From NCBI GenBank assembly GCA_032185465.1, contig GCA_032185465.1_4549.1: a DNA stretch of 40,535 bases; one strand, 5' to 3'. The notes beneath the pieces are model-generated. The model saw nothing but the letters and a program-made list of their open reading frames with translations. It had not been told where the DNA came from and did no database searches. The position numbers were made by a program, and so were the translations under genes. Origin of the DNA: a phage. Position 1 is the stretch's first letter, and every line of letters starts with the position of its first letter. Shown piece after piece: positions 9,560 to 9,600 of this stretch.

Positions 9560-9600
9560 ATCATAAAGGCCACTCGATGTGAATGACCTTGAGTCTAGAC
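9560..9600 (-). promoter_or_regulatory. conserved RNA hairpin, putative RNase III site (R4.7 position)
   Basis: Transcript AGACUCAAGGUCAUUCACAUCGAGUGGCCUUU folds as AAGGUCA/UGGCCUU stem with G-U pairs. One of three copies of the motif aaaggccac...tgaccttgagtct (plus strand). Confidence 0.5.

Follow-up and report, generated by a model that had tools for sequence, protein, structure and literature searches.

R1.1-type RNase III processing signals predicted at three gene junctions of a K1F-like phage of the T7 group

Three hairpin elements in the genome of a K1F-like coliphage of the T7 group are, judged from their sequence, very probably signals for mRNA processing by RNase III that belong to the R1.1 type of T7 and lie in polycistronic mRNAs. 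They are termed site A (9554..9601, equivalent to R4.7), site B (16829..16882, equivalent to R1.1), and site C (26237..26288, equivalent to R18.5), and all three are encoded on the minus strand. Sequence, fold, strand, and gene context match the recognition sites of T7 and T3, which supports the reading as RNase III sites that an earlier note on this DNA had put forward. The elements are unannotated members of a known family: RNase III sites count as textbook knowledge for the T7 group, and the T3 record labels them.

The analyzed stretch of DNA (the window, 40,535 nucleotides) is a complete Kayfunavirus (K1F/EcoDS1-like) genome of the T7 group with a size of ~40.5 kb. By megablast, positions 9000-17500 are ~90-95% identical to many Kayfunavirus phages, including LM33_P1, EcoDS1, and IME177. 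Open reading frames, PHROG matches, and promoter copies place the window in reverse-complement and circularly permuted orientation. The genes for RNA polymerase (20125->17444), primase/helicase (gene 4, 11520->9820), small terminase (gene 18, 26551->26288), and Rz spanin (gene 18.5, 26186->25749), as well as the DNA polymerase gene that starts at 9537, were assigned from ORF and PHROG data and are all located on the minus strand. The phage promoter CTAAACTATCACTATAG is present in 11 copies that are all directed along the minus strand, as are all genes, and RNA elements therefore have to be read on this strand.

The pattern AAGGCCAC-N{8,20}-TGACCTTGAGTCT matches the window exactly three times (9566-9596, 16843-16875, and 26250-26282), always on the plus strand as written, and zero times in 100 dinucleotide-preserving shuffles (chance expectation, 0). 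These are the three copies that had been claimed, each inside the interval assigned to it. The spacers measure 10, 12, and 12 nt, not the 11 to 14 nt proposed at the time, and the proposed start aaaggccac holds for two copies, with the second one reading gAAGGCCAC. The motif had been written on the plus strand, where it does occur; the RNA is its reverse complement, as the genes and the 11 promoters are on the minus strand, and takes the form AGACUCAAGGUCAU...GUGGCCUU(U/C)AUG(A/G)UUA. The AAGGUCA/UGGCCUU stem equals the reverse complement of the written motif and was thus correctly described. So were the several G-U pairs, with two in each upper stem (U5.G and U8.G) and one or two in each lower stem. 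A loose regular expression for the motif, applied to both strands of the window, returned only the three sites and chance-like matches.

The minus-strand RNAs of sites A, B, and C fold with z-scores of -2.2, -3.2, and -2.9 relative to shuffled sequences, whereas the plus-strand reads reach -0.4, -1.3, and -1.7. Each copy is built from a lower stem of 7-9 bp, an internal loop of 4 nt opposite 5 nt (ACUC / YAUGR), and an upper stem of 10-12 bp. In site A (RNA GGUCUAGACUCAAGGUCAUUCACAUCGAGUGGCCUUUAUGAUUAGACU), the lower stem consists of 7 bp (9601-9595 with 9560-9554), ACUC (9594-9591) lies opposite UAUGA (9565-9561), and the upper stem of 10 bp (9590-9581 with 9575-9566) is closed by the terminal loop ACAUC. 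Site B (RNA UAGGAUUAGACUCAAGGUCAUGACUCAAAGUCGUGGCCUUCAUGAUUAACCCUA) has a lower stem of nine positions with one A/C mismatch, ACUC opposite CAUGA (16842-16838), and an upper stem of 12 bp with the terminal loop CAA. In site C (RNA AGUGUUAGACUCAAGGUCAUUACUAUAUGUAGUGGCCUUUAUGGUUAACACU), a lower stem of 8 bp is followed by ACUC opposite UAUGG (26249-26245) and by an upper stem of 11 bp that ends in the terminal loop UAUAU. The segment AAGGUCAU/GUGGCCUU is conserved in all three copies. The distal pairs beyond it vary yet stay complementary (U-A/C-G; G-C/A-U/C-G/U-A; U-A/A-U/C-G across the copies), and the distal lower stems likewise differ with compensation (GGUC/GACU, UAGGA/CCCUA, and AGUG/CACU). 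The same architecture of two stems and a 4/5 internal loop is found in T7 R1.1, which has been described as a structured RNA with an asymmetric (4 nt/5 nt) internal loop and with a primary RNase III site that is in use both in vivo and in vitro (PMC6121014).

Family membership was assessed with a covariance model (R1) that was built from seven T7 sites only, which were aligned (alignment A1) with the two-stem structure imposed; the window was searched with filters off. RNase III features are not listed in the versions of the T7 records NC_001604 and V01146 that were used. The T7 cleavage positions reported by Dunn & Studier 1983 and in the GenBank feature table were taken to be 890, 1468, 3138, 5887, 6448, 11203, 13892, 18563, 27281, and 36856. 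On NC_001604, seven of these ten positions lie in a hairpin with a CCUUUAU^GAU-like string at its end, and the remaining ones (R3.8, R6.5, and R13) fall on promoter-associated hairpins of another form. In the window, model R1 yields six matches with E < 1e-3, all on the minus strand. Site C (26233-26292, 55.9 bits, E 4.6e-12), site A (9549-9606, 49.4 bits, E 2.7e-10), and site B (16826-16885, 46.1 bits, E 2e-9) are among them, and the plus strand reaches E = 0.76 at best. T3, with ten stem-loops (R0.3-R18.5) annotated as "RNase III recognition site" in RefSeq NC_003298, served as the reference for calibration. The model recovered 8/10 annotated sites (R4.7, R0.5, R18.5, R1.1, R0.3, R1, R1.3, and R6.5) and gave 0 matches outside annotated sites at E <= 1; the two that it missed, R3.8 and R13, both differ in architecture. 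Rfam gave no match at or near sites A-C, either at the gathering threshold or at E <= 1, and appears to be without a family for T7-type RNase III sites.

The likeness to T7 extends to the sequence itself. T7 R1.1 reads ACUCAAGGUCAUUCGCAAGAGUGGCCUUUAU^GAUUG, R0.5 reads GACUCAAGGUCGCUC...GAGUGGCCUUUAU^GAUUA, and R18.5 reads ACUCAAGGCCACUA...UAGUGGUCUUUAU^GGAUG. R1.1, together with R0.5, R4.7, and R18.5, is the closest known counterpart of the window sites; R1.1 RNA is the model substrate of the Nicholson laboratory, and the core ACUCAAGGUCAU...GUGGCCUUUAU^GAUU is common to T7 and the window. All three copies carry the 8-bp segment AAGGUCAU/GUGGCCUU of R1.1 in identical form. In site A, identity with R1.1 covers the upper stem and the 3' loop over AAGGUCAUUC..GAGUGGCCUU UAUGA. 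Site C and T7 R18.5 have UAGUGG and the unusual UAUGG 3' loop in common, a loop that is also present in T3 R18.5, and T3 R0.5 (AGUGUUAAACUCAAGGUCAUG...GUGGCCUUUAUGAUUAACAUU) is almost identical to site C in sequence. T7 and the window differ in the distal lower stems and in the terminal loops, where the changes are compensated, and sites A-C, unlike T7, carry an extra UUAG.../...UUA(A/G) atop the lower stem.

The gene context agrees with the T7 and T3 maps, which supports the proposed correspondence to T7 R4.7, R1.1, and R18.5. Site A lies between a gp4.3-like ORF of 54 residues, whose stop codon (9601-9603) overlaps the 5' base of the hairpin, and the DNA polymerase gene, whose start codon follows the 3' end of the hairpin by 17 nt. 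In T3, R4.7 (12970-13018) is located between gene 4.5 and gene 5 and thus, like site A, directly before DNA polymerase. T7 has an extra gene 4.7 that intervenes at the R4.7 position; this gene is absent in the window, where site A directly precedes gene 5. Site B is linked to a copy of the promoter CTAAACTATCACTATAG on the minus strand (16880..16902, +1 = G16880), with the transcript beginning at the base of the hairpin, and precedes a gene 1.1-like ORF of 59 residues, which is followed by gene 1.2. The same arrangement of promoter and hairpin is found in phi1.1A/R1.1 of T7 and phi1.1/R1.1 of T3, where R1.1 overlaps the end of promoter phi1.1. Site C abuts the stop codon of gene 18 (26288-26290), and gene 18.5 starts downstream of it (26186). 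In T7 and T3, R18.5 is likewise found between these two genes, and in T3 it overlaps the end of gene 18. Hairpins A-C finish 10-45 nt ahead of the ribosome-binding sites.

Substrates of E. coli RNase III typically comprise two helical turns and contain a proximal box, a 2-bp middle box, and a distal box (PMC1540722). In the upper stem of R1.1, the middle box is formed by U12:G27 and C13:G26 and the distal box by UA/UG, and the proximal box is located there as well (PMC1540722). In all three boxes, the three copies have the same pairs as T7 R1.1, with the box assignment having been inferred from the text of PMC1540722. Helices of about two turns with proximal and distal boxes are also common to other E. 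coli RNase III substrates, such as the rRNA operon stems, the rnc leader, and the lambda N leader. At cellular sites, however, both strands of a continuous helix are usually cut, whereas the internal loop of the T7-type sites restricts cleavage to one strand. The distance to the ribosome-binding sites would also suit translational operators that are bound by RNase III or another protein and stay uncleaved or are cleaved by another nuclease, and RNase III can bind some motifs without cutting them and regulate as an RNA-binding protein (PMC1540722). Such a role is very improbable for sites A-C, as their box sequences and internal loop are those of the efficiently cleaved T7 R1.1 and not those of cleavage-resistant variants. 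The G-C pair at position 4 of the proximal box that uncouples binding from cleavage (PMC1540722) is absent, and ACUC/UAUGA is present as in wild-type R1.1.

Stable intergenic hairpins on the transcribed strand could in principle serve chiefly to terminate or pause transcription by host or phage RNA polymerase and not as nuclease sites. Several findings make this hardly credible. No U-run follows any of the hairpins, the tails being UAUGAUUAGACUAAAC and similar, and a scan of 9400-9750 gave 0 terminator-like sites. Essential promoter-less genes follow, such as that for DNA polymerase after site A, with no promoter between genes 4 and 5, and the terminators annotated in the relative EcoDS1 lie elsewhere, after gene 1.3 and gene 10. 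An intrinsic or T7 RNA polymerase terminator, considered as a candidate, was rejected because a GC-rich hairpin with a U-run is not what the elements present.

The motif is retained in related phages, and its pairing is retained with it. IMG/VR was scanned for the exact pattern CTCAAGGTC-N-TGGCCTTYATG, in which the core is fixed, so that variation is possible only in the lower stem and in the distal part of the upper stem. At least 120 stretches carry the motif, nearly all of them from contigs of 37-45 kb and a few from shorter fragments. Their flanks were classified by blastx against the proteins of the window, which places the motif, among the matches listed, before gene 1.1, the ligase gene (1.3), and the DNA polymerase gene (5), between genes 18 and 18.5, and after gene 0.3. 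Pairing was counted without an alignment, at fixed offsets from the conserved core, in 112 distinct instances. Positions 1-4 of the lower stem are paired in 100, 100, 100, and 91% of them, with 3-6 pair types per position, and the values drop to 1-67% when the partner is shifted by one or two positions. By the same count, lower-stem position 4 is occupied by A-U in 53, U-A in 29, G-C in 15, and C-G in 5 cases, and distal upper-stem position 9 by U-A in 53, C-G in 48, and G-C in 8. In an alignment of 114 distinct rows (A2), which was fitted to the model, a dependence that the alignment-free count at fixed offsets makes up for, 93% of the cells are paired versus 76% in shuffles and 27-49% in slid controls. 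Changes on both sides are seen in 17/19 pairs, and 0/500 shuffles attained the observed values. As compensatory change goes together with maintained pairing in the relatives, the fold is under selection as RNA.

A reading of the copies as DNA-level repeats with an incidental RNA fold (a palindrome bound by a protein, a signal for recombination or replication, or a small mobile repeat) could draw on the presence of three near-identical copies of ~45 bp, whose identity within the genome is somewhat above that of T7, but it is exceedingly unlikely: the pairing relies on G.U, which corresponds to A.C mismatches on the opposite strand; the plus strand folds no better than shuffles and scores no better in the model than the E value of 0.76 given above; the covariation includes exchanges of G-U to A-U and G-C that keep the pairing of RNA and not of DNA; and the same gene junctions are occupied in T7, T3, and many contigs, unlike what is seen with mobile repeats. 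A plain DNA palindrome was ruled out on the strand asymmetry of the fold z-scores and of model R1.

Taken as RNase III processing signals, the three elements would work as follows. Host and phage RNA polymerases would transcribe the minus strand, and each element would fold into a quasi-continuous helix of roughly two turns, in which the ACUC/YAUGR loop sets the upper stem (AAGGUCAU.../...GUGGCCUU) apart from the lower stem. E. coli RNase III would bind the upper stem via the proximal, middle, and distal box pairs. Subsequently, a single cut would be placed on the 3' side of the internal loop (YAU^GR), proposedly because the loop removes the second target strand. The upstream mRNA would then end in a stable hairpin and be shielded from 3'-5' exonucleases, and the downstream mRNA (gene 5; genes 1.1/1.2; genes 18.5/19) would begin with pGAU or pGGU shortly before a ribosome-binding site. 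Internal loops restrict the cut to a single phosphodiester, and the 3' hairpin that remains is protective (PMC1540722). By homology to T7, the cuts are predicted at U9563|G9562, U16840|G16839, and U26247|G26246; the predicted cut in site A precedes the DNA polymerase ATG (9537) by 25 nt. As T7 can multiply in hosts that lack RNase III (PMC6938266), the sites would modulate mRNA stability and expression without being essential, and their role in fitness is uncertain.

The earlier note had named three sites, which holds for the copies with the full consensus. As a complete set the count falls short, as at least three weaker candidate sites in the early region and an R3.8-type hairpin had been missed. 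The further matches of model R1 on the minus strand are an intergenic candidate at 20870-20928 (35.3 bits, E 1.7e-6), a candidate at 21229-21293 (31.6 bits, E 1.7e-5) upstream of a 75-aa ORF that starts at 21213, and a candidate at 22050-22114 (28.2 bits, E 1.4e-4). The first shows the two-stem layout again, but its core, GAGAGGUCAUCG...AGGUGGCCUCAAAGAUUA, has diverged. The last directly precedes the first early gene (168-aa ORF, start 22032), which is the position of R0.3. The stretches at 21229-21293 and 22050-22114 are near-identical 65-nt repeats that each precede an ORF and have the tail AACAACUGAGAGG in common. The early candidates are probably sites of the R0.3 and R0.5 types. The R3.8-type hairpin is located at 11636-11664 on the minus strand, directly after a promoter (+1 at 11664), with the RNA GGGAUGAGACCACGAGUCUUGUCCCUUU|GUUCGCAUU. 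This hairpin, GGGAUGAGACCACGAGUCUUGUCCCUUUGUUCGCAUU, has the 15-nt string CCCUUUGUUCGCAUU in common with T7 R3.8, a string that includes the reported cut position of T7 R3.8, and was missed by model R1 because its architecture differs. In all, ten annotated sites in T3 compare with three full-consensus and three or four diverged sites in the window.

Model R1 detected no R1-type or R1.3-type site in the window. Gene 1.2 and the ligase gene are only 17 nt apart, and the region upstream of gene 1 that corresponds to the R1 position in T7 and T3 (20126-20225) has a z-score of -0.4 and no model match. Repeated AGAC(U/C) strings (AAGACUC, AAAGACC, GAGACUC, and AAAGACU) were noted on the minus strand at 20126-20200 and 22440-22540, ahead of the RNA polymerase gene and in the region of the early promoters, with no stable fold (z = -0.4).

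There is a slight chance, judged from sequence comparison, that the lineage has reshaped the classical processing map of T7 instead of just inheriting it. One hint is that the copies are more alike than those of T7 and that the early region holds the near-identical 65-nt duplicate, which may point to spread or homogenization by duplication or gene conversion. Another is that R1- and R1.3-type sites went undetected and that in the gene 4 leader the R3.8-type hairpin is followed by a tRNA-like element. Identity among copies A-C amounts to 74-83% versus 64-70% among T7 R1.1, R4.7, and R18.5, a comparison that is too small to support concerted evolution from within- versus between-genome similarity, and this idea was dropped.

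GenBank records of close relatives contain no RNase III annotation at the match, where a promoter, a hypothetical protein, or no feature at all is listed instead. The EcoDS1 annotation contains no RNase III features, and a literature search on RNase III sites in K1F or Kayfunavirus found only reviews. The present understanding of RNase III and of gene expression in the T7 group is left unchanged by the three sites. A covariance model built from T7 only could label such sites automatically across Studiervirinae, and the sites with their predicted cuts help to define mature mRNA ends and to interpret "cliffs" in phage RNA-seq. They are also of use in the engineering of therapeutic K1F-like phages, where breaking or duplicating processing signals should be avoided.

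Further structured elements were observed on the minus strand. The phi13 promoter is enclosed by a long hairpin at ~37530-37590 (AAGGGCCUAUAG...CUAUAGGCCCUU), and the phi6.5 promoter by another at ~5245-5332 (AUAGUCAUAUC...GAUAUGACUAU); both resemble R13 and R6.5 of T7 and T3, which are promoter-enclosing sites. In the capsid gene leader (1400-1470), the hairpin GGGAGACCAAGAGAAAGACUCAAGGUUUCCC stands straight after the promoter, analogous to the 5' stem-loop of T7 phi10, and its loop contains GACUCAAGG, a string that also occurs in RNase III sites.

The leader of the primase/helicase gene harbors an element that resembles tRNA-Thr(CGU), including an encoded CCA (11535-11613, minus strand), and is located downstream of the promoter (+1 at 11664) and upstream of the start codon of gene 4 (11520). 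It scores 36.7 bits against the Rfam tRNA family (gathering score 29) and is also called as a tRNA by ARAGORN. The same 143 nt are found in 158 phage records, a few of which annotate a tRNA-Thr, tRNA-OTHER, or pseudo-tRNA, and EcoDS1 has no space for such an element. The element might be an extra mRNA processing point of the RNase P/RNase Z type.

The DNA polymerase gene downstream of site A is split (6771-9537, minus strand), with residues 4-653 of T7 gp5 corresponding to 9510->7522 and residues 654-704 to 6923->6771. The insert of ~600 nt (6924-7521) contains a 131-aa ORF (7044-7439) with an HNH-like motif. A sub-threshold match to the group I intron family RF00028 spans 6934-7531 (35.8 bits versus a gathering score of 50, E 1.2e-5). 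The insert looks like a self-splicing intron with a homing endonuclease, and such introns have been reported in the DNA polymerase genes of some T7-like phages.
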